Below, piece after piece: positions 793 through 62,783 of a DNA stretch of 64,000 bases. Source of the stretch: an uncultured Candidatus Saccharibacteria bacterium (lineage in GTDB: Bacteria > Patescibacteriota > Minisyncoccia > Phycocordibacterales > UBA918); contig CAZRNZ010000001.1 in the NCBI GenBank assembly GCA_964601615.1, positions 185,968 through 249,967 on the forward strand, given 5' to 3'. The translations under genes were made by a program, and so were the position numbers. Within the stretch, counting starts at the first letter, position 1; the number at the start of each line of letters is the position of its first letter. Below the pieces are notes generated by a model, which searched no databases, had not been told where the DNA came from, and was given only the letters and a program-made list of their open reading frames with translations.

Positions 793-809
793 TATAAGGT
801 AATTATAAC

Positions 810-834
810 AAAAGCGCGCGCCTTCGGCGCGCGC
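810..834 (-). terminator. intrinsic terminator hairpin (GCGCGCGCC-ttcg-GCGCGCGC) with flanking A/T runs
   Basis: Perfect GC stem 814-834, A-run on + strand before it gives a T-run on minus; sits after the 854..1426 minus-strand gene. Confidence 0.6.
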
Positions 835-853
835 TTTGTCCTCTTAAATTAAT

Positions 854-1426: not shown

Positions 1427-1482
1427 AAATCCAAAATTGTAACCTTACGGTAATTTTTAATACCAATAATTATACCTTTATT

Positions 1483-2307
1483 TTATGACGGTGAAAGTTG
1501 ACGAGCCTCAGAAAGTAATGCTTCTATTTTACTCGCAGAAAGGCCTAATTCGGCTATTTTATTGGGTTTTTTGATAACATCCTCACAAACAACAATCCCT
1601 TTTTCTATTAAAGCTGTTTTTTGGGCAGAATTTATACTTTGTAAAACAGTTACTGGATATAGTTTTTTGCTCTCAATTAGTGAGTAGAGATTTTCTTCCT
1701 TTGGATAATCCCAGCTAAGTAAATCTACTCCGACACAATTTGCATACTTAATAGCTGCTGTCGTAAATTTTGTGTTAGTAATTATCTTAAAATCTTTTAC
1801 TCCACAAATATCTTCTGCACAAATTTTCATCTCTGATAAATCAAGCAAGCGTGCATAAGAATACATTGCAACTTGTAAGTCAGATTTTAAACCTGGTCTA
1901 GCATGAAATTTCGCTTCGGCAACAAAAGAATGATCTTGTTTATAGGCTGCTATATCAATTTCATGTGTTGCACACTTTCCTTTTATGATTAAACCCGTTC
2001 TGGTGTTGTAACCCTGACTCTGAAAAAGCCGAGAAAGAAAAGTTTCAAATGGAAAACCGGTTGGGCCCAAATCAAACAAAGCGCGTCGTAAGGCATATCT
2101 TGCGACTACAGATTCTTGTGTTGCTTTCAGTAAAGCAAAAGCTTTTTTATAAATATCCTGAGTAGTAATTCCATCATGTGCAACACTCTCAATTTCAGCT
2201 ACGATGTGTTCAATTTCTTTATCAGGAGTACCAGCTCTTTCTAGCGATCGACGAAGTTTATCTGCGTCAAAATTTTCTATCGTTCCATCTGCTTTTGTAA
2301 CTAACAT
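1483..2307 (-). CDS. ATP-cone domain fused to Mrr-like (PD-(D/E)XK) restriction endonuclease domain protein
   Basis: N-terminus VTKADGTIENFDADKLRRSL resembles the NrdR/ATP-cone consensus. Middle FETFLSRLFQSQGY...THEIDIAAYKQ...AEAKF fits the Mrr catalytic core (E/D...E-x-K). Confidence 0.65.
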   Translation of the reverse strand: MLVTKADGTIENFDADKLRRSLERAGTPDKEIEHIVAEIESVAHDGITTQDIYKKAFALLKATQESVVARYALRRALFDLGPTGFPFETFLSRLFQSQGYNTRTGLIIKGKCATHEIDIAAYKQDHSFVAEAKFHARPGLKSDLQVAMYSYARLLDLSEMKICAEDICGVKDFKIITNTKFTTAAIKYANCVGVDLLSWDYPKEENLYSLIESKKLYPVTVLQSINSAQKTALIEKGIVVCEDVIKKPNKIAELGLSASKIEALLSEARQLSPS

Positions 2308-2339
2308 AAAGAATATCGGTAATTAAAGTAATTTGTCCA

Positions 2340-3329
2340 TTACATTATAAATAATGAAAACAAGAATAAGAAATAAAGAATTATCAAAACAACACTCTCT
2401 CGCCAAGTTATAGCCTTTTTTACCTGAGAAGTATAAAGAAGGAATAAAGCTATTACTATCAAAAACACTCTGTTTATTAATGGAAATGTAGTGATGTCGT
2501 TTTGGATTGGATGTATAACAGCAGTTAAGCCAAGCACCAGAGTTGCAGGAATAATCACTGCACCAAGAAGTCCTCCGACAATAAGGTTTGTTTCACCCTT
2601 TATAGAAGAAATAATTGAAAAATAAATCTCAGGCAATGCTCCTCCAAAAGCCAAAATAACGGCACCTACTATTACTAGAGGAATATTTAAATCTTCTGCA
2701 AAAATAGAAGAACCATAAACCACTCCTTGAGCAGACAGCGCGACTAAGACAATACTAATAACGACTTTTACAATATCAGTTAAAACAACTGATCGTGGAA
2801 TATTTTCTTCTTCATCCTGGAATACTTTAGAAAAACGATTCTGCCTTACTAAAAGCCAGTAAACATAACCAATAAAAAGAAGTATTAAAACTAAACCATC
2901 ACTACGAGATAGAAAACCATCAGAAATTAAGATTAGTGGCAGAATAGCAGAAATTGAGGTCAAAAAAGCTGTGTCTTTGACCATATCACCTTCGATAGGA
3001 AGTTCTTTCTTTGCAGCAAAAAATACACTTAATGAAACAGCTAGTGTCATTACAATTATATTACTTCCCATTATTTCACCAAAAGAAAGTTCAGGTATTC
3101 CCTGAAATGCAGAAGTTATACCAATAAAAAAGTTTGGTAAAGTAGCGGCAAAAGCCAAAATAAAGAAAGCAACAACAAACTCTGTTATTTTAAAGTAACG
3201 AGATAATCTTGTTAAACCTCCTATCAAAAAGTTACCCGCAACGTACAACAAAACGCACGAGACAAAAATGGCAATAAGCCCATATAACCATGTCATTAAG
3301 CTTATGATATCACGGCTCCACCAAGACAA
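2340..3329 (-). CDS. Na+/Ca2+ exchanger family (CaCA, YrbG-like) membrane protein
   Basis: Multi-pass membrane protein with two internal alpha-repeat motifs (GSNIIVMTL...; GALPEIYFSIISSIKGETNLIVGGLLGA). Real start may be the internal Met at 3296, which would leave a 7-nt overlap with mnmA. Confidence 0.7.
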   Translation of the reverse strand: MSWWSRDIISLMTWLYGLIAIFVSCVLLYVAGNFLIGGLTRLSRYFKITEFVVAFFILAFAATLPNFFIGITSAFQGIPELSFGEIMGSNIIVMTLAVSLSVFFAAKKELPIEGDMVKDTAFLTSISAILPLILISDGFLSRSDGLVLILLFIGYVYWLLVRQNRFSKVFQDEEENIPRSVVLTDIVKVVISIVLVALSAQGVVYGSSIFAEDLNIPLVIVGAVILAFGGALPEIYFSIISSIKGETNLIVGGLLGAVIIPATLVLGLTAVIHPIQNDITTFPLINRVFLIVIALFLLYTSQVKKAITWRESVVLIILYFLFLFSLFIM

Positions 3330-4372
3330 ACCTCACCTCTGTAGAAAACAACCGACTGTCCCGCAGCTGGCTTTTCAATATTTTCTTTAGCTGAAATATA
3401 AAGACCATCTTTATCAGACAAAACATTAACCAAATCTGTTTTTCCCCGATAACGAAATACAGCTTCTGTTTCTGGTTCGTCAATTCTGTCTAGAATAATA
3501 TTTTCATTATTTATTCTAATTTTAGTTTCGCTACCAATTTCTGGCGGCTTTATATCAACAATAATGGAGTTTGTTGTAACATCTTTGGCAACAACAAAAT
3601 GTGGTTTGCGTGCTTTTTCGCCAAAAATAGTAAATCCATGTCTTTGTCCTAATGTATAGATAAGTGCCCCTGTATGTTCACCAATTATTCCACCACGTAC
3701 ATCATGTACAGCCCCTTTTTTTAATGTAGTAAAGTGACCAATAAATTCTGGTATATCAACGTGACCAAGAAAACAAACTCCTTGACTATCTTTCTTTACA
3801 GCAGTTGGAATACCGGCGTCTTTGGCCTCTTTTCTAATATCTATCTTTTCTGTATCTCCTACTGGGAATAACGTATGTGCGAGATCTTCTTGTGTCAGAG
3901 TCCACAAAAAATATGATTGATCTTTTGATGTATCCAAGCCTTTTAAAAGCTGATAAGAATCACCCTCCTTTTTTACTTGAGCATAATGTCCGGTAGCAAT
4001 AAAATCAGCACCATGTTTTTTGGCAAACTCCCAAAAAGCACCAAACTTTACGTGGCGATTACACATTACGTCTGGGTTTGGTGTGCGTCCAGCAATATAT
4101 TCTGAAATAAAATAATCACCCACACCTTTCTTGTATTCTTCTTCTGCATCACAAGTCAGGAAAGGAATTTTTAGGTGCGCAGCAACTCTCATTGCATCAA
4201 GTCGTTCTTCCTCCCAATTACAAACCAAAAAATCTGGGTGCCAAACTTTAATAAAAACCCCAACTACGTTGTAGCCTTCTTTTATTAAACGCAAAGCAGC
4301 GACCGAGGAATCTACTCCGCCCGACAACCCCACAAATACAGTCTTATCTTTGTTTTTATATCTTTCAAACAT
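3302..4372 (-). CDS. mnmA: tRNA-specific 2-thiouridylase MnmA
   Basis: PP-loop VGLSGGVDSSVAA, catalytic Cys region, conserved C-terminal barrel. 356 aa. Confidence 0.9.
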   Translation of the reverse strand: MFERYKNKDKTVFVGLSGGVDSSVAALRLIKEGYNVVGVFIKVWHPDFLVCNWEEERLDAMRVAAHLKIPFLTCDAEEEYKKGVGDYFISEYIAGRTPNPDVMCNRHVKFGAFWEFAKKHGADFIATGHYAQVKKEGDSYQLLKGLDTSKDQSYFLWTLTQEDLAHTLFPVGDTEKIDIRKEAKDAGIPTAVKKDSQGVCFLGHVDIPEFIGHFTTLKKGAVHDVRGGIIGEHTGALIYTLGQRHGFTIFGEKARKPHFVVAKDVTTNSIIVDIKPPEIGSETKIRINNENIILDRIDEPETEAVFRYRGKTDLVNVLSDKDGLYISAKENIEKPAAGQSVVFYRGEVCLGGAVIS

Positions 4373-5353
4373 TTATCTTAAGTACTTTGCAACATTTGCC
4401 CTATGTTCGTCAAATGTTTTTGCGTAATAGAAATTTCCATCGTCACCAGTGATGTAATAAAAATAATCACTTTTTATTGGATTTAACACAGCATTTATAG
4501 CTTGAAGTCCAGGATTTCCAATTGGAGTTGGTGGCAATCCATCATAAAGATAGGTATTGTATGGCGTATCTTTTTCTAAATCTTCTGGGGTTAAGGTATT
4601 TAGTGGACGATTGAGTACGTATTCAATCGATGCATCTACTTGAAGTCTCATTCCATCCTCAAGGCGATTTTGTAGAATACCTGAAACCATCTTCATTGAA
4701 TCTTCTGTATTAGCTTCACGTTCTAGAATAGAGGCTAATACAATCACACCTTCACCTAAAGGATGTAATCTAATTTCTTCTTGCAACAAAAGGGTCTTCT
4801 CTTCATAAGTTGCTATTAAAAGTTCAGCTAGCTCCAATGCTGCAAAATCAGCCGGAATAAAATATGTATCTGGAAAAAGATATCCCTCTTTACCTTTAAC
4901 TAGGTTTAAAAATTCTACTGAATCAAAATCGGGTAAAATTTGTTCTGCAATACGGGCGTATTCAGTAGCTGTATATCCCTCAGGAAGAGTTAGTGATAGA
5001 AGATTTTCACCAGCTGAGCCTTGAGTAATTTTTTTAGCAACTTCGAAGACGTCAATTGGTTCTGAGAAAAAATATGTACCTGCCTGAATTGAAGCTGGAT
5101 CATATTTACTAACCAATAATACATATAAAAATGCTGCGGACTTAACTACACCCTCATCGCGTAATAAATCTGAAATAGCAGAAGCAGAAAGTCCTCTTGG
5201 AATTGTTACTACCTGTTCTTCTGGAAAATCTTTTGGTGCTTTTGATTGACTCCAAACAAATAGACTAGTGGAAATAATTAATAAAATAAAAGCAGTGAAC
5301 ACATAAATCCACAGTGACCTCTGGGGTCTTTTTGTATTATAGGTTTCAATCAT
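4373..5353 (-). CDS. mltG: endolytic murein transglycosylase MltG (YceG-like)
   Basis: N-terminal TM anchor, YceG-like domain ending ...YFYYITGDDGNFYYAKTFDEHRANV. Abuts mnmA start. Confidence 0.85.
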   Translation of the reverse strand: MIETYNTKRPQRSLWIYVFTAFILLIISTSLFVWSQSKAPKDFPEEQVVTIPRGLSASAISDLLRDEGVVKSAAFLYVLLVSKYDPASIQAGTYFFSEPIDVFEVAKKITQGSAGENLLSLTLPEGYTATEYARIAEQILPDFDSVEFLNLVKGKEGYLFPDTYFIPADFAALELAELLIATYEEKTLLLQEEIRLHPLGEGVIVLASILEREANTEDSMKMVSGILQNRLEDGMRLQVDASIEYVLNRPLNTLTPEDLEKDTPYNTYLYDGLPPTPIGNPGLQAINAVLNPIKSDYFYYITGDDGNFYYAKTFDEHRANVAKYLR

Positions 5354-5358
5354 TTTGT

Positions 5359-6816
5359 TTATTCAGGTAAATCTCCAATTGGAAGATTATTCGGAGCTTC
5401 AGCACGTGTAGAAGAAATACGGTCTAATGTTGGGGTCATAGCCACACTACCCGGCAAGTGGAACATAGTCGCCAATTCTTCTGTAGTAAATATCTTTGGT
5501 TCATCAGCGCCACTCTTAGGAGCATAGGCACGCTTTCTATATTCTTTAAGCTCTTGAGTTTTCAAGTCTTTCAACGCCTTCTTTTTGCCGCCAGGAATTA
5601 AGCTCTTATAATCAAAGTCAGTTCGCCAGCGCACACCAACAGCATTTCTACCAATCAAGTCATACTGACTAAAAGATCGTATCATAGGACTGATTACATC
5701 ACCATTAAACTTACCTTTCTTGGTAATATACATCCATCGAATAGCAGTTTTATAAGCATACTTTGACATATTTCTTTCGATAGCAGAAATAGTGTCACGC
5801 TCACCAGTAGTTAACATTGCCATTTGACCCCCTTCGTCTAAATCCTTGGCTCCGAGTGGAGTTTTCTTCTTCGGATCACGGTTCATAATCGTATTTATTT
5901 GTTTTTCAGCACCCTTTGTCCAATCTTCACTTTCGCCCATCATTAATTGACCGTTTTTAAAACTACTAGTTCGAAAAGGTGTTGCAAGAAACTGCACAAA
6001 AATTCTTTCATAAGGTTTTATCGTACTTAAAACCTCAAGCATTGGAGTAATTGGGTCAATCTTTTCTTCTTCTTTAGGAAGTTTATCTAAACCATAATCA
6101 ACATAAGTTTTGATTGGCAAGGCAGCGTCCTTTTTCTTTCCCATATGAAAAGACATCAGCTCGAAGTCATGCGCTTCAAAATCTACTGGAATTTCGGCAG
6201 CATAATCTACCGGATCTTCTACAACTTCAACACCTGGATACTGAGCATATAAGTTTGATTCAATAGCATCACGAGTTTTCTTGGTTGGAACGTTTACATA
6301 AAAACGCACCTCTCCTCCAATAGACACAATCTCAAATGAGTATGGTAAAGGCTTTTTACCATCAAGATAAGTCTGCATTAAGTTATCTGGGCTTGCAGTA
6401 TTATGAATCTGAGAAATTACAGTTTCCATTGCCTCTGGGGACTTTAAAACTTCTTGTGGCAGACGGATACGTAGTGTCGAACGACCCTGAGAAAGATAAA
6501 AGGCAGTACCTACCATATCCATCCATTTAGAATGAAAAACAGTAATCAAAACTAGCGGCAACCAAATCGGTATTAAAGCAAAAAAGACTGCCAGAACTTG
6601 TCCGAGAGATAAACCTAAAATAGCCACTGCAATAATAAGAAGCAAAAATGAAGTTAGTGCAGCAAGTGGACCATAATCCATTCCGCCAGCAGATACCCAT
6701 CCAAATATATTACCTATAACAAAAACTTTCTTTTTACTAGCCTTGTCTTCAAAATTTCCAGACAACAAAAGACTAATTGATGAAGGTTTTTGTTTGCTCT
6801 TGGAGACATCAGACAT
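5359..6816 (-). CDS. hypothetical membrane protein with large soluble domain
   Basis: 485-aa ORF. N-terminal TM helices (residues ~45-95), no Walker motifs or other recognisable catalytic signatures. Confidence 0.55.
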   Translation of the reverse strand: MSDVSKSKQKPSSISLLLSGNFEDKASKKKVFVIGNIFGWVSAGGMDYGPLAALTSFLLLIIAVAILGLSLGQVLAVFFALIPIWLPLVLITVFHSKWMDMVGTAFYLSQGRSTLRIRLPQEVLKSPEAMETVISQIHNTASPDNLMQTYLDGKKPLPYSFEIVSIGGEVRFYVNVPTKKTRDAIESNLYAQYPGVEVVEDPVDYAAEIPVDFEAHDFELMSFHMGKKKDAALPIKTYVDYGLDKLPKEEEKIDPITPMLEVLSTIKPYERIFVQFLATPFRTSSFKNGQLMMGESEDWTKGAEKQINTIMNRDPKKKTPLGAKDLDEGGQMAMLTTGERDTISAIERNMSKYAYKTAIRWMYITKKGKFNGDVISPMIRSFSQYDLIGRNAVGVRWRTDFDYKSLIPGGKKKALKDLKTQELKEYRKRAYAPKSGADEPKIFTTEELATMFHLPGSVAMTPTLDRISSTRAEAPNNLPIGDLPE

Positions 6817-8028: not shown

Positions 8029-10851
8029 TCATTGTGAAATAATAAAATTGAGAATTTTTCCTGGTACGTAAACCACTTTTTTAATTTCTACTCCCTCTAA
8101 ATACTTAGCAACACCCACTTGTTCTTTTGCCAATAAAATTGCTTCATCTTCTGTTGTATTAGAGACCAAAGTTATATCTCCCCTCACCTTCCCATTCACT
8201 TGAACACCGATTTTTATAACCTCATTCTCTAACAAACCTTCGTCAGCTGTTGGAAAATCTGTTGCATGAATAGTAAATTCATTTCCAAGACTACTCCAAA
8301 GCTCTTCTGTTAGGTGAGGGGCAAAAGGTGCGAGGATTTTTAAGAATTTTTCGTAGGAGTCTTTGGATAGACCTGTTTTCTCAACAGCATTTACATAAAT
8401 CATCATTGCACTAACAGCTGTATTGAACTTAAATCCTTCAATATCTTCTGTTACTTTTTGAATAGTCTTATGTAATAGTCTAGTAGATTCTTCTGGCTCA
8501 CTTTCTACAATATGCTCACTAAGGCCATTTACTCTTTCTATGAACCTTTGAGCACCTACCAAACCATTTGTGCTCCAGGCTACTGTATTTTCAAATGGTC
8601 CCATGAACATTTCGTAAATTCTCATGGAATCAGCGCCATTTTGCTTCACAATATCATCAGGATTAATTACATTCCCCCATCTTTTAGACATCTTTCTTCC
8701 ATCTTCTGCCAAAATGAAGCCCAAGAACTCAAGTCTAGTAAAAGGCTCAATATAATTTACAGCACCTATATCATAAAGGAATTTATGCCAAAATCGTGCG
8801 TAAATTAAGTGCCTAACAGCATGGTCTCCTCCCACATAAACATCAACTGGCGACCATTTTTTATCTTTGTCTTTATTAATCAGAACGTCATTGTTTTTTG
8901 GATCAACAAAGCGAAGATAATACCAAGAAGAACCTGCCCATTGCGGCATGGTATTTGTCTCACGCTTGGCTGGTTTAGCACATTTTGAACAATCGACATT
9001 TACCCAATCATCAATAGCCGCCAATGGTGATTCTCCTGTACCTGTCGGTTCGTAATTTTCTACTTCGGGCAAAGTAACCGGAAGTTGTTCAAAAGGAACT
9101 GGTACAACACCACAATCTGCACAATGAATCACTGGAATTGGTTCACCCCAATATCTTTGTCTAGAAAACACCCAATCACGAATTTTATAAGTATTAGTAA
9201 GTCTTCCACCTACTTTTTCAGTAATAGTTTTTTTAGCTTCTTCACTATTTAATCCATCAAATTCCCCAGAGTTTACCAAACTTCCGACACCAGTCCATGA
9301 ACAGCCATTTAGAAAATCACTCCATATATCAAAATGTGCTTCCCAAGTAATTTTTTTACCAACTTCTTCTTTATCAACCCATTCAACAGTATGTCTACCC
9401 TCATCTATTTCTGAAGAAACTTGAGTCAAACTCTTAAGCTTAATATGATAACCAAAACTTTTAGTCTTTTGGTTCTTATCTTTTGTATGACGATAAACCA
9501 GTGCCGTATGAATACTCACTGGACCACTCACAATTTCATAATCAGTAAAACCAGTCTCCTCAATCAACTCTCTCCCAATCGCAACTTCGTGTTTTTCACA
9601 ATCTGTGCCACCACCTACAAAATGTATATGATCGGGACTGCTTCCATCAGTCTCTCTTTGTAGTAAAAAGGTGCCGTCTGTTGGATGCTCAATAATCAAA
9701 TCTATCACATCACCACGATCCAATGTCTCTACACCTTCTTTAGTTTTTAAATCAAAGTGTCGAGCAATGACTTGCGTGATAGGTAAGTTAAATTTTTTAG
9801 CAAAAGCAGCATCACGTTCATCATGTGCTGGTACTGCCATAATTGCACCAGTACCGTAGTTTGCCAGTACATAATCAGCAATAAATACTGGAATTTCCTC
9901 ACCATTTGCTGGATTTACAGCAGTAACACCCTCAAGCTTTACACCCGTCTTTTCTTTATCGTTGTTTGTACGATCTATTTCACTCTTTAGTTTTGATTCT
10001 TTTATATACATCAAAACCTCATCTTTATTTTGAATCGGTAACTTATTCACCAGTTCATTCTCTGGTGCTAAAACTAAGTAAGTTACGCCAAACAAAGTAT
10101 CTGGACGAGTGGTAAAGACTGTCACTTTTTCACCATTAGATAAAGTAAAATCGACTTCCGCTCCTTCACTTTTACCAATCCAATTTCTTTGTGCTTCTTT
10201 AATATGTTCTGGCCAATCAAGTGTGTCCAAATCAGCTAACATACGGTCAGCATAATCAGTAATTTTTAAAACCCACTGACGCATTGGTTTTTTTTCTACA
10301 ATACTGCCACAACGCTCACAAGTACCATCACTTTCAAGATCTTCATTAGCTAATCCTGTCTGACATCCTGGACACCAATTAATTGGCTCGTAAGACTGAA
10401 AAGCTAAACCCTTTTCAAGCATTTTCAAGAAAGCCCATTGAGTCCATTTATAGAATTCAGGATCAGTTGTGTTTATTTCTTTGCTCCAGTCATAGTTAAA
10501 GCCAAGATGAGCTAATTGTTGTTTAAAGTTAGCAATATTTTTTTCCACTGCAGCGCGGGGGTGTACCTTGTTTTTAATCGCAAAGTTTTCTGCTGGTAGA
10601 CCAAAAGCATCCCAACCCATTGGATGAAGTACTTCAAAGCCAGACATTTTTTTGAAGCGAGAATAGATATCAGTAGCAATATAGCCTTTTGGATGCCCTA
10701 CATGAAGGCCTTCTCCAGAAGGATAAGGAAACATATCGAGTACATAAACTTTTTCTTTATCAGAATCTGTATTTGTCTGATAAATATTGGCCTCTTCCCA
10801 TTTTTTCTGCCATTTTTTCTCTATGGCGCTGTGATCAAACTTTTTATGCAT
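8029..10851 (-). CDS. leuS: leucyl-tRNA synthetase with embedded Nudix hydrolase domain
   Basis: Class I aaRS motifs (HVGH, editing TTRPDT, ...KMSKRWGNVI KMSKS-like). Start taken at MHKKFDHSAIEKKWQ (10851); the upstream Met at 10902 adds a non-conserved Cys-rich leader. An extra ~157-aa segment (~aa 381-540) contains a full Nudix box GGGTDCEKHEVAIGRELIEETGF. Confidence 0.9.
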   Translation of the reverse strand: MHKKFDHSAIEKKWQKKWEEANIYQTNTDSDKEKVYVLDMFPYPSGEGLHVGHPKGYIATDIYSRFKKMSGFEVLHPMGWDAFGLPAENFAIKNKVHPRAAVEKNIANFKQQLAHLGFNYDWSKEINTTDPEFYKWTQWAFLKMLEKGLAFQSYEPINWCPGCQTGLANEDLESDGTCERCGSIVEKKPMRQWVLKITDYADRMLADLDTLDWPEHIKEAQRNWIGKSEGAEVDFTLSNGEKVTVFTTRPDTLFGVTYLVLAPENELVNKLPIQNKDEVLMYIKESKLKSEIDRTNNDKEKTGVKLEGVTAVNPANGEEIPVFIADYVLANYGTGAIMAVPAHDERDAAFAKKFNLPITQVIARHFDLKTKEGVETLDRGDVIDLIIEHPTDGTFLLQRETDGSSPDHIHFVGGGTDCEKHEVAIGRELIEETGFTDYEIVSGPVSIHTALVYRHTKDKNQKTKSFGYHIKLKSLTQVSSEIDEGRHTVEWVDKEEVGKKITWEAHFDIWSDFLNGCSWTGVGSLVNSGEFDGLNSEEAKKTITEKVGGRLTNTYKIRDWVFSRQRYWGEPIPVIHCADCGVVPVPFEQLPVTLPEVENYEPTGTGESPLAAIDDWVNVDCSKCAKPAKRETNTMPQWAGSSWYYLRFVDPKNNDVLINKDKDKKWSPVDVYVGGDHAVRHLIYARFWHKFLYDIGAVNYIEPFTRLEFLGFILAEDGRKMSKRWGNVINPDDIVKQNGADSMRIYEMFMGPFENTVAWSTNGLVGAQRFIERVNGLSEHIVESEPEESTRLLHKTIQKVTEDIEGFKFNTAVSAMMIYVNAVEKTGLSKDSYEKFLKILAPFAPHLTEELWSSLGNEFTIHATDFPTADEGLLENEVIKIGVQVNGKVRGDITLVSNTTEDEAILLAKEQVGVAKYLEGVEIKKVVYVPGKILNFIISQ

Positions 10852-10932
10852 AACTTGAAATAAACAAAATGACTCCCGCTTTATACAGGAGTCATTATGC
10901 AATCTAAAACAAGATTGTTCAACCTTTCAGGA

Positions 10933-11841
10933 TTACTGGTTAAGAGTTTTAACTTCTTCAGGAAAAACTACACGATCGAAACACTTTTGACCTTCACCAT
11001 GATCCCAAATATTATTTTTACTGTATTTATCTATCTCATAGTAATACTGGCCACTATTTCTTTCTGACTCAGGTGTTGCACGAGAAAAAGTGGCACAAAG
11101 TTGATAAGTCTCGGCCCCAGTAAGATTATATTCATACTGAGCGCGACCCTCTGTGGCAATAGGTGCTGGAAAATCTGGATAAGCTTGATCAATACTATCT
11201 GGTAAAACACCATTTGTTTGATAGAATCCTTGAATTTTCCAATGGATATTTTGTAAATCTGATACTTGCTGTTGATCAATCTTTATTTCACGAGTTTGTG
11301 ATGGAGAATCAATTTGCATGTAACCAATAACAGCAAAAACAATTACAACAACAGAAACTACTGCTCCGATAATTTTTGAAACAGTTTCTTTCTTGTTCCA
11401 ATAATCTTTGGCATCCAATAGATAATAGTAGAAAGCACCTCCGATTATTAACAGCATTGCTAATGCTTTCAAAATAAATCGAATTGTAATTTCTCCATTA
11501 AGGAAATAGAAAACTACCGTAGCTAAATCTCCCAACATCACCATTCCAGCAATTAGAAGTGCTATGTAGATAAACCACTTAGTTAATTTGTGATAAAGCT
11601 CCCCTTCGTCACGACGTCCGTTATTTACCTTTCTTGTGATAAAAATATATGCAGGGAAAAATACTGCCAGAACTGCGATTGTGTAACGAATGCTACTTTG
11701 AGCACTTTCAATTCTCCAATAACTTTCAGCCGCATCTGGAAAAGCCAGGTTGATAATCGAGAATACCAGCAAAATAAATGCCGGCAATGACACGAACAAT
11801 GTTGCCAATGAAGCTAATTGCAATACAAAACTTTTTGCCAT
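10933..11841 (-). CDS. hypothetical polytopic membrane protein
   Basis: 302 aa. 5-6 TM helices in the N-terminal two thirds, soluble C-terminal domain with a conserved-looking Cys pair. Confidence 0.55.
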   Translation of the reverse strand: MAKSFVLQLASLATLFVSLPAFILLVFSIINLAFPDAAESYWRIESAQSSIRYTIAVLAVFFPAYIFITRKVNNGRRDEGELYHKLTKWFIYIALLIAGMVMLGDLATVVFYFLNGEITIRFILKALAMLLIIGGAFYYYLLDAKDYWNKKETVSKIIGAVVSVVVIVFAVIGYMQIDSPSQTREIKIDQQQVSDLQNIHWKIQGFYQTNGVLPDSIDQAYPDFPAPIATEGRAQYEYNLTGAETYQLCATFSRATPESERNSGQYYYEIDKYSKNNIWDHGEGQKCFDRVVFPEEVKTLNQ

Positions 11842-11898
11842 AATTAAAGATAGTTATTAAACACTACTTTTTGATTATATCACTTAAATTATATTAAA

Positions 11899-11932
11899 CC
11901 CCAGACTTTCTTTGAAAGTCTGGGGTTTTATT
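11899..11932. terminator. hairpin CCCCAGACTTT-ctttg-AAAGTCTGGGG followed by TTTTATT
   Basis: Perfect 11-bp stem between ychF and the downstream membrane-protein gene. Could act on either strand. Confidence 0.5.
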
Positions 11933-12090
11933 ACAGCTTTATGAAAGATTGTAAGAATCCTAGAAGCTTTACATGAAATACATCAATATTGAATATCAAT
12001 ACAAGAAGAAAAAATACGATAACTATCAGCAACGTGGCTGATAAAGATTTTTTATTCACTTCACTTGAAAACATTTCCTCCTCCAGTTTT

Positions 12091-13191
12091 CTAGCTATGC
12101 ATGAATTCCATCACATCACCATCCTCAACGATATACTCCTTTCCCTCAGTACGCAACTTACCAGCTTCACGCGCTTTTGCTAATGAACCCGCTTCTACTA
12201 AATCGCTAAAAGAAACAACCTGAGCGCGAATATACTTACTCTGGAAATCAGTATGGATTGCCGCACCAGCTTCTGGACCTGTTGATCCACGCTCAATTGT
12301 CCAAGCACGAGTTTCTTTTTCACCAGTTGTAAAGTATGACATTAAACCAAGTAGACGGTAACACGCTCTAATTAAGCTTTCTACCCCACTATCTTGTGAA
12401 CCATATTCGCGGCGAAATTCTATTTTTTCGTCTTCTTCTAAATCTTTTAGTTCATGTTCCATTCCGGCATCAACAACCACATATTCTGAGCCAGATTCTT
12501 CAAAAAATTCCACCAAACGCTGCCATCTTTCGTCATTTTGTTCATCCAAGTTATATGAGCCTTGCTTACGATTACAAACATACAGAAATGGCTTCATAGT
12601 AAGAAGATGTAAGCCTTTAATCAGCTTCTTTTGCTCATCAGTGAAAGCAAAAGAGTTAGCTAACTTACCATCTTGCAAGTGAGTAATAAGTTCTGAAAGA
12701 ACTTCTTGCTCTGCTACAGCAGACTTATCGCCACGTTTAGCATCTCTTTCTACGCTATTTAAACGCTTTGAAACTGTCTCAGCATCAGACATCATTAACT
12801 CAAGATTAATGACCTCAATATCACTCATTGGATCAACTAAGCCAGACACATGGTGCACATCACTATCTTCAAAAATACGTACAACCTCAGCAATCATTGA
12901 AACCTCACGGATATTTGAAAGAAATTTGTTACCCAGACCTTCTCCTGAAGCCGCACCCTTAACTAATCCAGCAATATCCACAAACTCCACAATTGCAGGA
13001 ATAACTTTGGCAGTATTAGAAATCTTTGCCAATGTTTCCAATCTTGGATCAGGCACAGCAACTACACCAACAGAGGGGTCAATTGTACAAAATGGGTAAT
13101 TTTCTGCCGGCACACTACTGCGAGTAAGCGCATTAAAAAGTGTCGATTTTCCGACATTTGGTAGTCCTACGATTCCTACTGATAATTGCAT
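12091..13191 (-). CDS. ychF: ribosome-binding ATPase YchF (Obg-like GTPase family)
   Basis: G1 VGIVGLPNVGKSTLFNALT, TGS-like C-terminal ...IVEDGDVMEF. 366 aa. Confidence 0.9.
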   Translation of the reverse strand: MQLSVGIVGLPNVGKSTLFNALTRSSVPAENYPFCTIDPSVGVVAVPDPRLETLAKISNTAKVIPAIVEFVDIAGLVKGAASGEGLGNKFLSNIREVSMIAEVVRIFEDSDVHHVSGLVDPMSDIEVINLELMMSDAETVSKRLNSVERDAKRGDKSAVAEQEVLSELITHLQDGKLANSFAFTDEQKKLIKGLHLLTMKPFLYVCNRKQGSYNLDEQNDERWQRLVEFFEESGSEYVVVDAGMEHELKDLEEDEKIEFRREYGSQDSGVESLIRACYRLLGLMSYFTTGEKETRAWTIERGSTGPEAGAAIHTDFQSKYIRAQVVSFSDLVEAGSLAKAREAGKLRTEGKEYIVEDGDVMEFMHS

Positions 13192-26986: not shown

Positions 26987-27694
26987 TTATTCGGCAGTAT
27001 TTGGAGTAAATGTTGAATCTACAACAACATTTCCGCCCTTCGAATCCTTGTACATAAGATACATATATCCAACCATTATCGGAGCGACAAGCATACTAAT
27101 AGCTGTAGCAGTGATATTTATAGTCATTTCACCACCAGGAAGAATTGCAGCAATTCCCATAACAACAATCATTAACAAGAAAATTATAACTGAGCCAGCA
27201 ATAGAACGACCAAAGACTCCCCACCACTTTCCTTTTACATATTCACGAGAGCGACGCATTGAATCAATAATTGGAGTATTTTCCAAAATCAAAACAAAAG
27301 CAGCAAACAAAAACCAAACTGAAAGTATGATTCCTGGAATAATCAAAAGAAGATAAGCAATTGTAAGAACAACGGTCATCAAAATTGATAGGCCAATGTA
27401 ACGCCAAAAAAATCCTTTTGCCTTACCGTAAGCTGAAGAAATTGTCAGATTTGGGTTATCTATTGCCAAAACAAGAGCAGCGCCCATAAATATATTCACG
27501 ACTGATGTTACCAACATTAATAGACCAAACAACATCCAATCAAAAACGCTGACAACAGCCGTATCCTGGATCGGTTCAAACAAAGTTGCAATAACTGATA
27601 AAATCATTGGGACAGCAACTATACCGATAAACAAAAAGGGATTACCAAAAAAGATATTTGATGAATCCTTTAAGAGTTGTATTGGATTACGCAT
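26987..27694 (-). CDS. hypothetical polytopic membrane protein upstream of atpB (AtpI/AtpZ position)
   Basis: 235 aa with ~6 TM helices. Assignment by position only. Confidence 0.45.
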   Translation of the reverse strand: MRNPIQLLKDSSNIFFGNPFLFIGIVAVPMILSVIATLFEPIQDTAVVSVFDWMLFGLLMLVTSVVNIFMGAALVLAIDNPNLTISSAYGKAKGFFWRYIGLSILMTVVLTIAYLLLIIPGIILSVWFLFAAFVLILENTPIIDSMRRSREYVKGKWWGVFGRSIAGSVIIFLLMIVVMGIAAILPGGEMTINITATAISMLVAPIMVGYMYLMYKDSKGGNVVVDSTFTPNTAE

Positions 27695-27775
27695 AAATTT
27701 ATTTTATTTTTTAATTAAAGTAATTATATCACCAAAAACTAACACAAAGAACGATATAGTAGAATATATCAGAAG

Positions 27776-28141
27776 ATGAAAAATCTAATAATTCTTTACC
27801 AAGATTCCTGTGGAGTATGTCGAAAATATATCGATTTTGTCTCAATAAATACTAAAAGTGGTAAAAATATTGAATTTATTGATATCAGCAACAATGAAGC
27901 CTTGTCTTTGTCTAATAATTTTTTTTTAAATATTAACTTTAAAAATCCAGAATCTATGATTGTTATTTCTGATAGAAAAATTTATACAAAATGGCAAGCA
28001 ATTACCGAGATTGGGAAAAATATGAAATCTCCTTGGCTACAAATTGCTTACCTCAGTAATTTAGTACCTAAAAGAATTGGTGATATTTTATATGATTTCC
28101 TTTCTAAAAATCGTTTTAAAATTAGTAAGTACTTGAAATAG
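27776..28141 (+). CDS. thiol-disulfide oxidoreductase DCC family (DUF393) protein
   Basis: N-terminal LYQDSCGVCRKYIDF matches the fYDGdCxlC signature. 121 aa. Low-GC gene. Confidence 0.7.
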   Translation: MKNLIILYQDSCGVCRKYIDFVSINTKSGKNIEFIDISNNEALSLSNNFFLNINFKNPESMIVISDRKIYTKWQAITEIGKNMKSPWLQIAYLSNLVPKRIGDILYDFLSKNRFKISKYLK

Positions 28142-28604
28142 AAATTATTTTTTCAGGAAAAATTTTATCACAAACATTCATTGTGTATTTTATCTCATTA
28201 CTTGAAGGCCAGGAAATAGCTATTCTTGTTCTTAATTTTTTACCTGGCTTTTCGGTAAATACAGGTGAATGAATCAACAAATCAAAATCTTTATCAATCA
28301 AAAATGGATTGTCTTTAATTAGACGTCTTATTGATTTTTCAGAAGGTTTTTTGCAATAAAAATTAAAGTCGAAATTTTCTTTAATAAAACCACCTGAATG
28401 TACAAAACCTTTGTAAATATAATCATTATTATTTTTAGAAACAATTTCGACAGTAACTATTCTTTTGGGTTCTACATACATAGAATATCCTCCGAGTTTC
28501 CAAGGGTTTAAAAGATCGTTGTAATTCAAAAACATATGAACCGCTAACCAAACAGCTTGTATTAGAAATATTACTATCAGAATTTGTTTATTAGTAATTT
28601 TCAT
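28122..28604 (-). CDS. hypothetical membrane-anchored protein
   Basis: 160 aa with N-terminal TM. Low GC. Overlaps the 3' end of the DCC gene convergently by ~20 nt. Confidence 0.5.
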   Translation of the reverse strand: MKITNKQILIVIFLIQAVWLAVHMFLNYNDLLNPWKLGGYSMYVEPKRIVTVEIVSKNNNDYIYKGFVHSGGFIKENFDFNFYCKKPSEKSIRRLIKDNPFLIDKDFDLLIHSPVFTEKPGKKLRTRIAISWPSSNEIKYTMNVCDKIFPEKIISISSTY

Positions 28605-28609
28605 AAAGT

Positions 28610-29407
28610 TTAAAAAAGATAATCAATTATTCTACTTATGGAAAAAAGATCTAATATAAGTAAGCTTATACAGATAAGTACCATCCAATATTTCATACCA
28701 AATCTAAAAGCCATACATAGAAGGGCTATATTTAATACCTGAAAATTCATTTCGTCTGCATAAAAACCAACAAATAGTAGGAAGCTGAATTCTAAAAATA
28801 AAACAAACCAATTCTTCCAACCAAACAATAAAAAAACACCCACAATAAATTGCCATAAAATAGCTGCCCAAGCTAATAAGACATACCAATAACATATTTC
28901 ATTTGGCTGACAAAGAAAGTTAAATACCCTTTCAGTAGAAGAACCGTTATTGCTCAACCAACTAATATATAAACCATCATGAAATGTCCCTGAAATTACT
29001 TTTTGTAATGCAGCAACAATCATTACCATAGCAATAGTTAGTCTGATGTAAGTTGTATAAACAACATCTTTCCACCAATTACTTGAAAAAATTACAGGAA
29101 CTAAAGCCCAAACAGCTAAGTATGTATGATTTGCGGCTGAATACCAACTAAAGATAAAACTTATTAAAAGACCAAACGAGAAAATATAGATGCTTATCTT
29201 CCTATCTTTTTGAAACCAAAATAAAGTAACGCCAATCAGCATCACTATTGCAGAATAAAAAGCTGGAGCGTCATGAAATTTAAAATAATCTAAACTTTGC
29301 TGAAAGACAACAGAAATCATAGCTATCCAAAGCGCTGAATCCATCATCAACTTATTTCCTATTGTTATTTCTTTCTGAAGTTTCTGAAGTAAAGGTATAT
29401 CCTTCAT
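28610..29407 (-). CDS. multi-pass membrane protein, possibly HTTM-like
   Basis: 265 aa with >=6 hydrophobic helices. DCC/DUF393 proteins are frequently associated with HTTM-domain proteins, so the HTTM label is tentative. Confidence 0.5.
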   Translation of the reverse strand: MKDIPLLQKLQKEITIGNKLMMDSALWIAMISVVFQQSLDYFKFHDAPAFYSAIVMLIGVTLFWFQKDRKISIYIFSFGLLISFIFSWYSAANHTYLAVWALVPVIFSSNWWKDVVYTTYIRLTIAMVMIVAALQKVISGTFHDGLYISWLSNNGSSTERVFNFLCQPNEICYWYVLLAWAAILWQFIVGVFLLFGWKNWFVLFLEFSFLLFVGFYADEMNFQVLNIALLCMAFRFGMKYWMVLICISLLILDLFSISRIIDYLF

Positions 29408-29447
29408 TACCCAATAATAACATGCGTATATCTGGACATATTTTAAA

Positions 29448-29483
29448 ATAACAACCTCTGACTTAAAGTCAGAGGTTGTTATT
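29448..29483. terminator. perfect 16-bp hairpin AATAACAACCTCTGAC-ttaaa-GTCAGAGGTTGTTATT flanked by A/T runs
   Basis: Sits between the tRNA-Ala 3' end and the upstream gene. Likely terminates the tRNA transcript on the minus strand. Confidence 0.6.
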
Positions 29484-29489
29484 TTACTG

Positions 29490-29562
29490 TGGACCCGACA
29501 GGACTCGAACCCGCCACCTCCTCAGTGCAAGTGAGGCGCTCTACCAGATGAGCTACGGGCCC
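29490..29562 (-). tRNA. tRNA-Ala (anticodon UGC)
   Basis: Reverse complement folds as a canonical cloverleaf: acceptor GGGCCCG/CGGGUCC with a G3:U70 pair (Ala identity), anticodon loop CUUGCAC, T-loop GGUUCGAGUCC. CCA is not encoded. Confidence 0.9.
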
Positions 29563-60804: not shown

Positions 60805-60902
60805 AAGTGTGTTTATTATAGCAGGGGCGCAGCGAAGCTGCGCCCCTAATAAGTTGGTAAACCCTCCCCTTTGCGTTATCATAATGACCCAAAGCAATAC
60901 AC

Positions 60903-60989
60903 GGAAACGTCGCATAGTGGCCTAGTGCGCTCGCTTGGAAAGCGAGTAGGGTGTCAAAACCCTCGAGAGTTCGAATCTCTCCGTTTCCG
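60903..60989 (+). tRNA. tRNA-Ser (anticodon GGA)
   Basis: Acceptor GGAAACG/CGUUUCC with G discriminator, anticodon stem CUCGC/GCGAG with loop UUGGAAA, long variable arm (GGGU...ACCC), T-arm GAGAG-UUCGAAU-CUCUC. Upstream TTGGTA-17-TATCAT promoter. Confidence 0.9.
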
Positions 60990-61049
60990 CTAAGATTAAG
61001 CGAAGCGAAAGCTTAGCGGAAACGAGCAAGCAAACTACTTTGCTTGCAT
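60972..61049 (+). repeat. inverted repeat of the tRNA-Ser 3' end (CGTTTCCGCTAAG...CTTAGCGGAAACG) plus a second hairpin GCAAGCAAA-ctac-TTTGCTTGC
   Basis: The tRNA acceptor/T-arm 3' strand is repeated in inverse 17 nt downstream. Confidence 0.55.
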
Positions 61050-61155
61050 GAGATATTCGAAAGACATTTTCTTATTTTCTCTCATTCCTGGTGAGAAAAA
61101 TGAAAATGTCCGGGCAGGAGATACTTATGAGCGTCAGCGAATTTGTATCTGACGC

Positions 61156-61168
61156 CGAATCTCTCTGT
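61156..61168 (+). repeat. partial direct repeat of tRNA-Ser 3' end (CGAATCTCTCtGT vs CGAATCTCTCcGT at 60972-60984)
   Basis: 12/13 identity; preceded by hairpin GCGTCAG-11nt-CTGACGC. Possible att-site remnant. Confidence 0.4.
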
Positions 61169-61207
61169 CCCATAAAATTATTTTACTTTATGAACTATAA
61201 TTAAAAT

Positions 61208-61627
61208 ATGAAAACTATTGTTTTTATTTCTTGCTCCAGCAAGAAATTGCCACACAAAGCAAAAGCAAAAGATTTATATATCAGTCCTTTATTTCAAAAA
61301 AGTTTAGAGTTTGCATACTCTTTAAACCCAGACAATATTTTTATACTTTCTGCAAAACACGGTTTAGTTTCACTTGAACAGAAACTTGAGCCGTACAACG
61401 AAACATTAAATAAAATGACTACGTTAGAAAACAAAAAATGGGCTAAGGTTGTAGAGAAACAACTGAGAGGAGAAGTAAATTCTTCAGACAAAGTTATTTT
61501 TCTTGCAGGTAAAAAATACAGACGACACTTTGAGAAATTATTTAAAAAATTAGAAGTTCCAATGGAAGGCTTATCTATTGGAAAACAACTTCAATATCTA
61601 AACAATAAAATTGGTTATGCAAAATGA
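61208..61627 (+). CDS. hypothetical small alpha/beta (Rossmann-like) protein, first gene of low-GC two-gene module
   Basis: 139 aa. N-terminal beta-strand plus CSSKK loop (TIVFISCSSKKL), later SAKHG and FLAGKKYR repeats suggest a phosphate/nucleotide-binding fold. GC ~30%. Confidence 0.55.
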   Translation: MKTIVFISCSSKKLPHKAKAKDLYISPLFQKSLEFAYSLNPDNIFILSAKHGLVSLEQKLEPYNETLNKMTTLENKKWAKVVEKQLRGEVNSSDKVIFLAGKKYRRHFEKLFKKLEVPMEGLSIGKQLQYLNNKIGYAK

Positions 61628-62252
61628 GTGCGAAAAATTACATAAGTTTGTAAATAATTTAAAGATATTTACTTTCCCTTTTGATATTAAGGAAATTCCA
61701 CTTAATGGTGTTTACATAGTTTTTGAAAGAGATGAATTTGCGCATAGTGGCAGAAGAATTGTTCGAGTAGGTACACATACTGGAGACAATCAACTAATAT
61801 CAAGAATAAATCAACATTTTATAAATGAAAATAAAGACAGAAGTATTTTTAGAAAGAACATTGGCCGAGCAATTTTAAATAAAAGAAATGATTCTTTTTT
61901 AGAACAGTGGGAATTAGATTTAACTACCCAAAAAGCGAAAGCCAAGTATTCAGAATCTATTGATTTTAATAAACAAAATTCTGTCGAGAAAGAAGTCACT
62001 GAATATATTCAAAGAAATCTTAGTTTTGTTGTTTTAGATATTAAAAATAAAGAAGACCGTCTTTCTTTTGAATCAAAAATTATTTCTACAGTTTCTTTAT
62101 GTAAAGAATGCCAGCCTTCAAAACACTGGCTAGGCTCTTTTTCGCCTAAAGATAAAATAAGAGATAGTGGTTTATGGTTAGTGAACGAATTATATAAACA
62201 ACCACTTTCTCACGAAGAGATCTTAGTCCTAGAAAATTTTGGTATCAAATAA
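61611..62252 (+). CDS. GIY-YIG / T5orf172-like nuclease domain protein
   Basis: NGVYIVFERDEF...RIVRVGTHTG...LISRINQHF fits the GIY-x10-YIG...R...H pattern; downstream ...EQWELDL; C-terminal CKEC. Overlaps the previous gene by 17 nt. GC ~30%. Confidence 0.55.
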   Translation: MVMQNECEKLHKFVNNLKIFTFPFDIKEIPLNGVYIVFERDEFAHSGRRIVRVGTHTGDNQLISRINQHFINENKDRSIFRKNIGRAILNKRNDSFLEQWELDLTTQKAKAKYSESIDFNKQNSVEKEVTEYIQRNLSFVVLDIKNKEDRLSFESKIISTVSLCKECQPSKHWLGSFSPKDKIRDSGLWLVNELYKQPLSHEEILVLENFGIK

Positions 62253-62347
62253 TTTTAAACTTATACACACACTCCTCTACCTCTCTCAAAGTACACAGCT
62301 ACAATTACTTATAGATCGTGTTTATTCAAAATAAGTAAGTAGCTACT

Positions 62348-62731
62348 ATGGAGACAACAATATTTTTAGCGAGTTTGTGGGGACCAGTAATGTTTGTAGC
62401 GGGTTTAGGTTTAATAATTAGTCGCAGATATTATTTAACTGTTTATAAGAATGCCAACCGTGACAGAATGGCGGTTGTGGCAATTTCTATTATTGCTATG
62501 ACTACTGGTCTGGCACAGGTGCAATTTCATAATGTTTGGGAAAGTTTGCCGCAAATAATCATTAGTTTGCTTGGCTGGGCAATGCTGATTGAAGGAGCTT
62601 TATATACACTCAAACCAAAGATTGCAGAAAAACTCTCTGCATTGATTGTGGAGGAGAAAATGATGGTTGCTTCAGGAGTTATTTGCTTGATTTTGGGCGG
62701 ATATCTTTCTTGGGTAGCGTTTATGGTTTAA
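62348..62731 (+). CDS. hypothetical 4-TM membrane protein
   Basis: 127-aa hydrophobic ORF followed by a strong terminator. Confidence 0.5.
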   Translation: METTIFLASLWGPVMFVAGLGLIISRRYYLTVYKNANRDRMAVVAISIIAMTTGLAQVQFHNVWESLPQIIISLLGWAMLIEGALYTLKPKIAEKLSALIVEEKMMVASGVICLILGGYLSWVAFMV

Positions 62732-62750
62732 GAGTTTGAATGAGAGGAGA

Positions 62751-62783
62751 AAGTGGGCGAGCCTTTGGCTCGCCCACTTTTTC
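62751..62783 (+). terminator. AAGTGGGCGAGCC-tttg-GCTCGCCCACTT hairpin plus TTTTTC
   Basis: Perfect 13-bp stem 20 nt after the stop. Confidence 0.75.

Follow-up and report, generated by a model that had tools for sequence, protein, structure and literature searches.

A DUF6884 and GIY-YIG gene pair beside tRNA-Ser(GGA) in a Candidatus Saccharibacteria genome matches the predicted phage defense cassette PDC-M57

The closest described system to the genes studied here is PDC-M57, one of 145 phage defense candidates (PDCs) derived from cassettes embedded in BREX, DISARM, type I restriction-modification (RM), or Hma loci, an approach termed "guilt-by-embedding" (bioRxiv 10.1101/2024.01.29.577857). 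PDC-M57 corresponds to cassette CAS_00183, which has 46 copies in RefSeq v209 (Payne, Hughes, Fineran & Jackson, bioRxiv 10.1101/2024.01.29.577857). The PDCs are predictions and have been treated as unvalidated in later surveys. We analyzed a 64,000-nucleotide stretch of DNA, referred to here as the window, from an uncultured Candidatus Saccharibacteria bacterium (assembly GCA_964601615.1, contig CAZRNZ010000001.1, positions 185,968 to 249,967), in which two overlapping genes of low GC content lie downstream of a tRNA-Ser(GGA) gene. The original prediction for this window presented the pair as an undescribed defense or toxin system and placed gene 1 in no named family. That description had to be revised: the two proteins belong to the Pfam families DUF6884 and GIY_YIG_3, and PADLOC has listed the pair since Payne et al. 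2024. Its status as a defense candidate, in the sense of a catalogued prediction, was confirmed. Gene 1 matched the PADLOC PDC-M57A hidden Markov model (HMM) at 8.3e-55 (residues 1 to 134 on profile positions 1 to 135 of 138), and gene 2 matched the PDC-M57B HMM at 6e-97 (residues 3 to 209 on profile positions 1 to 207 of 211). As PDC-M57 calls for, gene A is followed directly by gene B on the same strand, here with an overlap of 11 nucleotides (nt). By these profile matches and this gene order, the two-gene cassette is a new copy of PDC-M57 and was already catalogued.

Several proteins related to gene 1 act on DNA or on 7-deazaguanine bases. YaaA binds DNA and co-purifies with double-stranded DNA (PMC4834066). 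It protects against oxidative and other DNA damage, and its mutants are sensitive to hydrogen peroxide (H2O2), mitomycin C (MMC), and ultraviolet light (UV). DpdC (DUF328) turns 2'-deoxy-7-cyano-7-deazaguanine (dPreQ0) into dADG, its 7-amido counterpart, within DNA. The Bacillus subtilis DUF6884 protein YfjM was enriched on abasic and ribonucleotide-containing DNA baits (PMC10220248), and in an AlphaFold 3 model a base is flipped into the conserved pocket (PMC11701544). For comparison, ArcS, whose substrate in tRNA is 7-cyano-7-deazaguanine (preQ0), has a PCX3KPY motif within a Rossmann-like insertion (PMC5699537).

Gene 1 (61208 to 61627, plus strand) encodes a protein of 139 amino acids (aa) that matched Pfam DUF6884 (PF21818) at 1.1e-42 with 145.9 bits against a gathering cutoff of 30. 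Weaker matches were to YaaA, in the Pfam scan, and to DpdC. No methyltransferase or other cofactor-binding family was found in the Pfam scan of gene 1, which returned DUF6884 and the weak YaaA match alone, and a sequence search of the Protein Data Bank (PDB) with the profiles of both genes gave nothing significant. Gene 1 has the YaaA/DpdC-type DNA-binding fold. Among 40 gene 1 homologues, the invariant residues include C9, K13, L47, S48, A49, G52, Y63, W78, D94, and Q127. These contain the CxxxK (C9 and K13) and LSAxxG (L47, S48, A49, and G52) motifs that the Pfam curators described for DUF6884 (PMC11701544). In sequence, the CxxxK motif resembles the PCX3KPY motif of ArcS.

Gene 2 (61617 to 62252, plus strand) encodes 211 aa from an ATG codon, or 213 aa from an alternative TTG at 61611. 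The ATG at 61617 was favored as the start by the database gene call and by the N termini of homologues. Therefore, the overlap that had been noted between the two genes is real, but it spans 11 nt and not 17. This overlap suggests that genes 1 and 2 are translationally coupled. The precomputed Pfam assignment of gene 2 is GIY_YIG_3 (PF26468), and the Pfam scan gave a weak match to DUF123 (0.0098). The proposed assignment to a GIY-YIG/T5orf172-type nuclease was correct for GIY-YIG but not for T5orf172 (PF10544), which had no match at E ≤ 1 in the Pfam scan.

The fold of gene 2 is that of the GIY-YIG nucleases, a three-stranded sheet plus helices, with the core residues G31, Y33, R47, G52, R63, H67, and E152. 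In the GIY motif (G31-V32-Y33), the glycine is invariant and the tyrosine at least 90% conserved; at the YIG position (R50-V51-G52), the family is a variant of the motif. The predicted catalytic set consists of R63, which is invariant, H67, which is at least 90% conserved, and the predicted metal-binding E152, which is present in most sequences. We take R63/H67/E152 to correspond to R27/H31/E75 of I-TevI by order and spacing. At the candidate position for a conserved asparagine, N190, homologues have N, Q, M, or other residues. Four further residues, C5, H9, C162, and C165 (window positions 61629 to 62111), are conserved together and may form a structural zinc site holding the N-terminal helix and the C-terminal region together. 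Six homologues of alignment A2 lack the CxxC, and in three of these C5 is absent as well. Target recognition by gene 2 is probably delegated to DUF6884.

To place the pair within its family, we scanned one genome per species for 185,579 species and obtained at least 550 loci, the best 80 of which were used for the context counts. Relatives of gene 2 amounted to 4,550 protein clusters, with 1,272 representatives at 50% identity. The best 80 loci (58 to 71% identity) are scattered patchily across phyla and are dominated by DPANN archaea. Other hosts among them are Methanosarcinales, Thermoplasmatota, several lineages of the candidate phyla radiation (CPR), Flavobacteriia, Chloroflexota, Nitrospirota, Gammaproteobacteria, and others. 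In 72 of the 80 loci, the gene 2 homologue is directly preceded on its strand by a DUF6884 gene. Many proteins are DUF6884-GIY_YIG_3 fusions in this same order, often with a C-terminal DUF7662, and some of the fusions add an N-terminal Pif1 helicase, a topoisomerase Zn-ribbon, or long TPR arrays. Examples of fusions with extra domains are proteins P0376, P0388, P0389, and P0407. These data bear out the functional pairing that had been proposed, and on the strength of gene order and fusions, we regard genes 1 and 2 as one functional unit. The adjacency and the same-order fusions argue for cooperation on one substrate and not for an antitoxin-toxin relation.

The 261 neighboring genes (two on each side of the pair) are extremely heterogeneous. 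No conserved third gene or mobility gene was found near the pair, and the commonest family occurs three times among 141 immediate neighbors. In plasmids and viral contigs, the gene 2 family was found in 7 haloarchaeal megaplasmids (about 30% identity) and 10 IMG/VR contigs, and GIY_YIG_3 was absent from 50,697 isolated phage records. With gene 2 absent from these phages and rare in IMG/VR and megaplasmids, carriage of the pair by phages or plasmids was rejected.

In the window, the GC content of the pair is 0.291 compared to a window mean of 0.377 (standard deviation, 0.031), which is within the lowest 1.7% of equal-sized sliding windows and agrees with the low GC reported at the outset. The tRNA-Ser(GGA) gene that forms the left anchor of the site was located by ARAGORN at 60903 to 60990 (plus strand) and by Rfam RF00005 at 60903 to 60989 with 54.8 bits, so that its identification was upheld by both programs. 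At the right junction of the cassette (62253 to 62347), GC rises again from about 62200, and this interval holds no terminator or tRNA-like repeat. The next gene (62348 to 62731, plus strand) encodes a 127-aa membrane protein and is followed by a terminator hairpin at 62747 to 62783 (inverted repeat I3). This core flanking gene marks the right border. Its product is 42% identical (6e-44) to that of a 127-aa gene at the syntenic position of a related locus, L005, and because this homologue fixes the flank, we place the right border of the cassette at 62253 to 62347.

We compared the site with those of the nearest relatives (loci L003, L005, L006, and L007), whose TypA proteins are 88 to 90% identical to that of the window and which are not of the same species. 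By its TypA relatives, the host itself is a Paceibacterota/Kaiserbacteria-like CPR bacterium. The homology detected by blastn ends at the 3' end of the tRNA, at 60990 for L003 and L005 and at 60993 for L007. None of the four relatives has the pair at this site. At the tRNA-Ser(GGA) site of L003 (1 to 6844), there is a restriction-type island with an HTH-N6/N4 methyltransferase, a C5 methyltransferase, a large serine recombinase, DUF6119, and a type IV-like restriction helicase (mREase_IV, 2e-66). The cargo of L005 is a 114-aa open reading frame (ORF), followed by the homologue of the 127-aa membrane protein, and in L007 some 5 kb of unrelated genes precede a DEAD-box helicase. The 17.8-kb L006 locus around TypA contains no tRNA. 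The 196-aa protein of the left flank had no relative among the species genomes, and a tRNA-based DNA pattern searched in Joint Genome Institute (JGI) metagenomes matched the L003 contig only. We also observed a perfect GC-rich hairpin at 60826 to 60848 (GGGGCGCAGC-GAAG-CTGCGCCCC), in the interval from the start of the minus-strand ORF of 196 aa to the promoter region of the tRNA.

Similar features recur at other loci of the family. The GC content of the pair is below that of the flanks in 58 of 68 loci (p = 1e-8), and a tRNA lies within 500 nt of the pair in 10 loci compared to 2.4 expected (p = 2e-4; about 4-fold). In six of these 10 loci, as in the window, the tRNA precedes the pair on its own strand. 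In two other CPR lineages, L046 and L049, the pair is located beside tRNA-Ser(GGA). In L049 (Saccharibacteria; 3337 to 5881), a fused 345-aa protein starts 22 nt after this tRNA. In L046 (4506 to 6610), the pair abuts a large serine recombinase of 529 aa that lies between two full copies of tRNA-Ser(GGA) in inverted orientation, at 4509 to 4598 (plus strand) and 6338 to 6427 (minus strand). The last 30 or so codons of this recombinase are antisense to the tRNA, and its C-terminal 75 or so codons are duplicated in inverted orientation together with the tRNA. The arrangement may represent an invertible or integrative element that targets this tRNA. Taken together, the low GC, the variable site, and the absence from four relatives support the tRNA-adjacent accessory islet of the original prediction, and the cassette is horizontally acquired in a variable site next to a tRNA. 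The 3' flank of tRNA-Ser(GGA) emerges as a hotspot of cargo exchange in Paceibacterota-like CPR bacteria.

Three side observations concern these loci. The L046 contig (Patescibacteria) also encodes a phosphoenolpyruvate (PEP)-utilizing enzyme (349 to 3981) and a DnaG primase (9187 to 12099) that appear to carry intein-like insertions, with LAGLIDADG/Hint-like segments in their translations. In the window, the stretch of lowest GC (27400 to 29450; 0.25 to 0.28) adjoins tRNA-Ala(TGC) (29489 to 29562, minus strand) and may be a second tRNA-side islet. It contains ORFs for a DCC1-like thiol-disulfide oxidoreductase (27776 to 28141, plus strand), a 160-aa protein without a family (28122 to 28604, minus strand), and a 265-aa membrane protein that weakly matches DoxX (28610 to 29407, minus strand). 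Finally, the Logan contig L002 (SRR16797978_230391) joins about 700 nt (1 to 701) of actinobacterium-like DNA of about 70% GC, inside tRNA-Ser, to window positions 60910 to 62667. We rejected it as evidence of mobility because the 5' acceptor strand cannot pair with the 3' strand, i.e., the contig is a chimera. Such a chimera likely stems from k-mers shared between tRNA genes and calls for caution in analyses of context.

Between the tRNA and gene 1 is a structured spacer (60982 to 61207, plus strand). Its 218 nt from 60990 to 61207 fold at -63.1 kcal/mol, with a z-score of -5.8 compared to shuffled versions. Of the three hairpins described earlier, the one with an inverted copy of the tRNA 3' end was recovered, but the count was too low, as we resolved four stem-loops, H1 to H4, all on the plus strand (60982 to 61024, 61026 to 61047, 61063 to 61110, and 61112 to 61170). 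The individual hairpins have z-scores of -5.3, -4.1, -3.7, and -3.3, the value for H1 being -5.3. The 5' arm of H1 is the 3' acceptor strand of the tRNA, which forms inverted repeat I4 with its inverted copy (16-nt arms, 94% complementary). The 3' arm of H4 is a direct repeat of the 3' half of the tRNA T-arm/acceptor, in which 61156 to 61168 (CGAATCTCTCTGT, plus strand) is identical to 60972 to 60984 (CGAATCTCTCCGT) at 12 of 13 positions. This previously noted repeat is real, given that about 0.02 such 12/13 matches are expected by chance in the 64-kb window. A promoter-like site at 61149 to 61178 in the spacer was not above chance. No Rfam family was found in the spacer even at E ≤ 1, and no copy of it was found elsewhere in the window or in any fetched locus, which ruled out a known RNA and a repeated element such as a miniature inverted-repeat transposable element (MITE), respectively.

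The repeat at 61156 had been read as att-like, and this reading did not hold. The repeat precedes both genes and does not bracket them, as no second copy was found after gene 2 within 3 kb downstream. Moreover, L005 has a repeat that resembles its own tRNA 3' end about 139 nt downstream without having the two genes, whereas in L046 and L049 the genes adjoin tRNA-Ser(GGA) without any such repeat. For these reasons, the repeat does not mark the insertion of the genes, and we ruled it out as an att site. The L005 spacer (5990 to 6200, minus strand) is collinear and rich in hairpins, with weak similarity to that of the window (local alignment z = 2.7). The two trailers match in architecture with little sequence identity and different acceptor stems, and each repeat resembles its own tRNA. 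The spacer is probably an older feature of the tRNA locus and not part of the cassette; it is more likely an older integration scar or a functional structured tRNA 3' trailer.

In viruses, the gene 1 family occurs without the nuclease, in 51 phage records and 283 IMG/VR loci. The viral DUF6884 proteins are 34 to 51% identical to gene 1, have the same small size, and retain CxxxK and LSAKxG. The best phage match (42% identity) was from Fusobacterium phage phiFN37 (L101; 3197 to 4435), in which a ParB-like gene comes first, followed by queuine tRNA-ribosyltransferase (a DpdA-type transglycosylase), DUF6884, and queuosine-precursor transporter. In Halorubrum tailed virus 29 (L099; 6001 to 7126; genus Dpdavirus), the DUF6884 gene is annotated as "YaaA" and overlaps the start of DpdA; the paper on this virus listed YaaA as a metabolic gene and did not connect it with DpdA. 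We searched for DpdA, which is the 7-deazaguanine DNA transglycosylase, by tblastn with two queries, the DpdA proteins of phiFN37 and Halorubrum tailed virus 29, a search of low sensitivity. Of the 80 best IMG/VR DUF6884 loci (within L108 to L185), 30 have a DpdA-like gene no more than 6 kb away, and in about 18 of them it is immediately upstream on the same strand. The same low-sensitivity search of the 80 cellular cassette loci and of the window yielded no DpdA-like gene. DUF6884 received no mention in the searchable 7-deazaguanine literature. Judging from this gene linkage, viral DUF6884 may be an unrecognized component of phage 7-deazaguanine pathways, where it presumably helps to write or mature the modification. 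If so, it would be a missing piece of the pathway, e.g., a small dPreQ0-to-dADG hydrolase or a DpdA helper.

We propose that the DUF6884 module would scan DNA and flip out an abnormal or modified base and that the attached GIY-YIG module would then nick or cleave that DNA. The cassette could provide innate immunity against foreign DNA in the manner of modification-dependent (type IV-like) restriction, a role that we favor and to which we assign an even chance. A more specific proposal is that PDC-M57 is modification-dependent restriction aimed at 7-deazaguanine-modified phage DNA, with DUF6884 as the reader, which we hold to be distinctly unlikely. It was suggested by the viral DUF6884 genes adjoining DpdA while the cellular cassettes are without it. 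Here, DUF6884 would be a miniature relative of DpdC/YaaA that cells recruited as a reader from a role in DpdA operons. This reader would flip bases of the dPreQ0, dADG, or 2'-deoxyarchaeosine (dG+) type and thereby license the fused or coupled GIY-YIG nuclease to cut. To our knowledge, no host system specifically targets 7-deazaguanine bases. Such bases shield phage DNA from many restriction enzymes (PMC6884629), and if the viral linkage reflects substrate specificity, the cassette would be a countermeasure to phage DNA modified in this way.

A number of observations weigh against a horizontally acquired defense cassette. Beyond the candidate list, we found no paper on this pair and thus no report of a PDC-M57 member protecting against phage. 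In gene 2, the second tyrosine of the motif is replaced, the YIG position being R50-V51-G52, with G52 invariant and R50 conserved to at least 90%. There is no integrase or recombinase between 60990 and 62347, no repeats bracket the pair in the window, and no cassette-free genome of the same species, i.e., a strict empty site, was found. The link to DpdA rests on viral paralogues 34 to 51% identical to gene 1, and several phages carry DUF6884 without an annotated DpdA. For a gene in an arms race, identity of 58 to 71% between domains of life is unusually high conservation. Defense-HMM matches make up about 8 to 10% of the 261 neighboring genes, and repair genes adjoin the pair, including Pyr_excise (twice), HhH-GPD (twice), NUDIX (five times), a UvrD-type helicase, MutS_V, and Rad51. 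In L049, the stop codon of the fused pair overlaps the start of an AlkD-type DNA alkylation repair gene, which is followed by a NUDIX hydrolase. The idea that homologous pairs sit in defense islands held for some loci but not for most, which are housekeeping contexts. In favor of defense, the pair in L057 is embedded in a type I restriction locus in the order HsdS-A-B-HsdR; L047 has GmrSD-HsdS-A-B, and L031 has A-B-RadC-HsdR. The restriction island of L003 at this tRNA, the serine recombinase element beside the pair in L046, and the excess of tRNAs near the pair count on the same side. Neighbor context alone does not decide between defense and repair.

The main rival is a mobile DNA repair cassette in which DUF6884 recognizes a lesion (an abasic site, an embedded ribonucleotide, or an oxidized or alkylated base) and the GIY-YIG module incises beside it, with a logic like that of UvrC/Cho or UVDE. 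Organisms with minimal genomes would then have a new, alternative excision pathway with lesion-specific incision, a reading that we consider rather unlikely. The AlkD-type overlap in L049 is the strongest single hint for it, to which can be added the other repair neighbors, the high sequence conservation, the fusions to Pif1 helicase and topoisomerase Zn-ribbon, and the GIY-YIG fold common to UvrC and SLX1. The enrichment of YfjM on abasic and ribonucleotide baits (PMC10220248) and the sensitivity of YaaA mutants to H2O2, MMC, and UV point the same way. Against it stand the very patchy distribution (about 0.3% of species genomes), the GC content below that of the flanks in most hosts, and the genomes in which the pair is embedded between HsdS and HsdR or adjoins GmrSD. 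The tRNA hotspot also holds a restriction island in a relative (L003), and DpdA, the viral partner of DUF6884, is an enzyme of DNA modification and not of repair.

Two other explanations are less likely than either defense or repair. The pair could be a minimal RM-like or toxin-antitoxin system, with gene 1 modifying a base to protect self DNA or neutralizing the nuclease and gene 2 being a toxic nuclease that is released or acts on unprotected DNA. A small upstream gene translationally coupled to a nuclease fits this arrangement, as do the DNA-modifying activity of DpdC-like relatives, the existence of GIY-YIG type II restriction enzymes such as Eco29kI, and a spread that resembles that of RM genes without mobility genes. 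Nevertheless, we consider it improbable: the frequent same-order fusions into single polypeptides weigh against an antitoxin-toxin relation, gene 1 lacks a methyltransferase or cofactor-binding family in Pfam, and with no DpdA or preQ0 genes near the cellular pairs, a DpdC-like enzyme would be without a substrate. Alternatively, the pair could be a selfish nuclease cassette, free-standing and like a homing endonuclease, that brings no benefit to the host and persists by spreading horizontally and by cutting sites without the cassette. The GIY-YIG fold is common to I-TevI and T4 EndoII, and the very variable context, the low GC, and the lack of conserved flanking sequences would all suit such an element. 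Homing, however, needs homologous flanks, and these differ completely between loci. Given also that no NUMOD/IENR-type DNA-binding domain was found in the Pfam scan, that isolated phage genomes, in which such genes thrive, do not contain the family, and that both proteins are under strong purifying selection, a selfish cassette seems very improbable.

Thus far, the window copy is itself ordinary, being one more member of a catalogued candidate family. The family is widespread, and neither of its proteins has a solved structure or an assigned activity. The viral linkage of DpdA and DUF6884 gives a concrete direction for experiments on it. Structurally, nothing sets it apart from the catalogued PDC-M57: the two proteins of the window cover almost the full length of the HMMs, and their genes keep the same order and strand and overlap. 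What differs is the setting, next to a tRNA of a CPR bacterium and not inside a BREX, DISARM, or type I RM locus. In its site, the cassette is like tRNA-integrated genomic islands, with a tRNA 3' flank, atypical GC, cargo that differs in relatives, and serine recombinase islands at the same tRNA in L003 and L046. It is unlike them in having no integrase, a tRNA-like repeat before and not after the cargo, and a cargo of 1.05 kb.

At the level of the proteins, gene 1, with 139 aa, is half the size of Escherichia coli YaaA (PDB 5caj) and DpdC (DUF328), which have about 260 to 310 aa, and it has its own CxxxK motif. Unlike DpdC, its partner is a nuclease and not DpdA/DpdB, with no DpdA nearby by the low-sensitivity tblastn. 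The viral DUF6884 genes follow DpdA without a GIY-YIG partner, whereas the cellular gene is tied to the nuclease. Gene 2 has the same catalytic fold as R.Eco29kI, the 5-hydroxymethylcytosine-specific PD-T4-3 (PDB 9u75), and T4 EndoII, and its GIY Tyr, Arg-x3-His, and Glu follow one another in an equivalent order. In contrast to these nucleases, it has no detectable sequence similarity to any solved chain, an insertion of about 70 residues that separates the Arg helix from strand 3, a C-terminal region with a conserved CxxC...WLG...GLW pattern, and the second Tyr replaced. The folds of the type IV enzymes GmrSD, McrBC, and MspJI are unrelated to those of the cassette, and the comparison with them is one of working alike, with modification dependence inferred from the viral DpdA linkage. 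What the cassette would share with these enzymes is their logic, a reader of modified bases joined to a nuclease, with no cognate methyltransferase.

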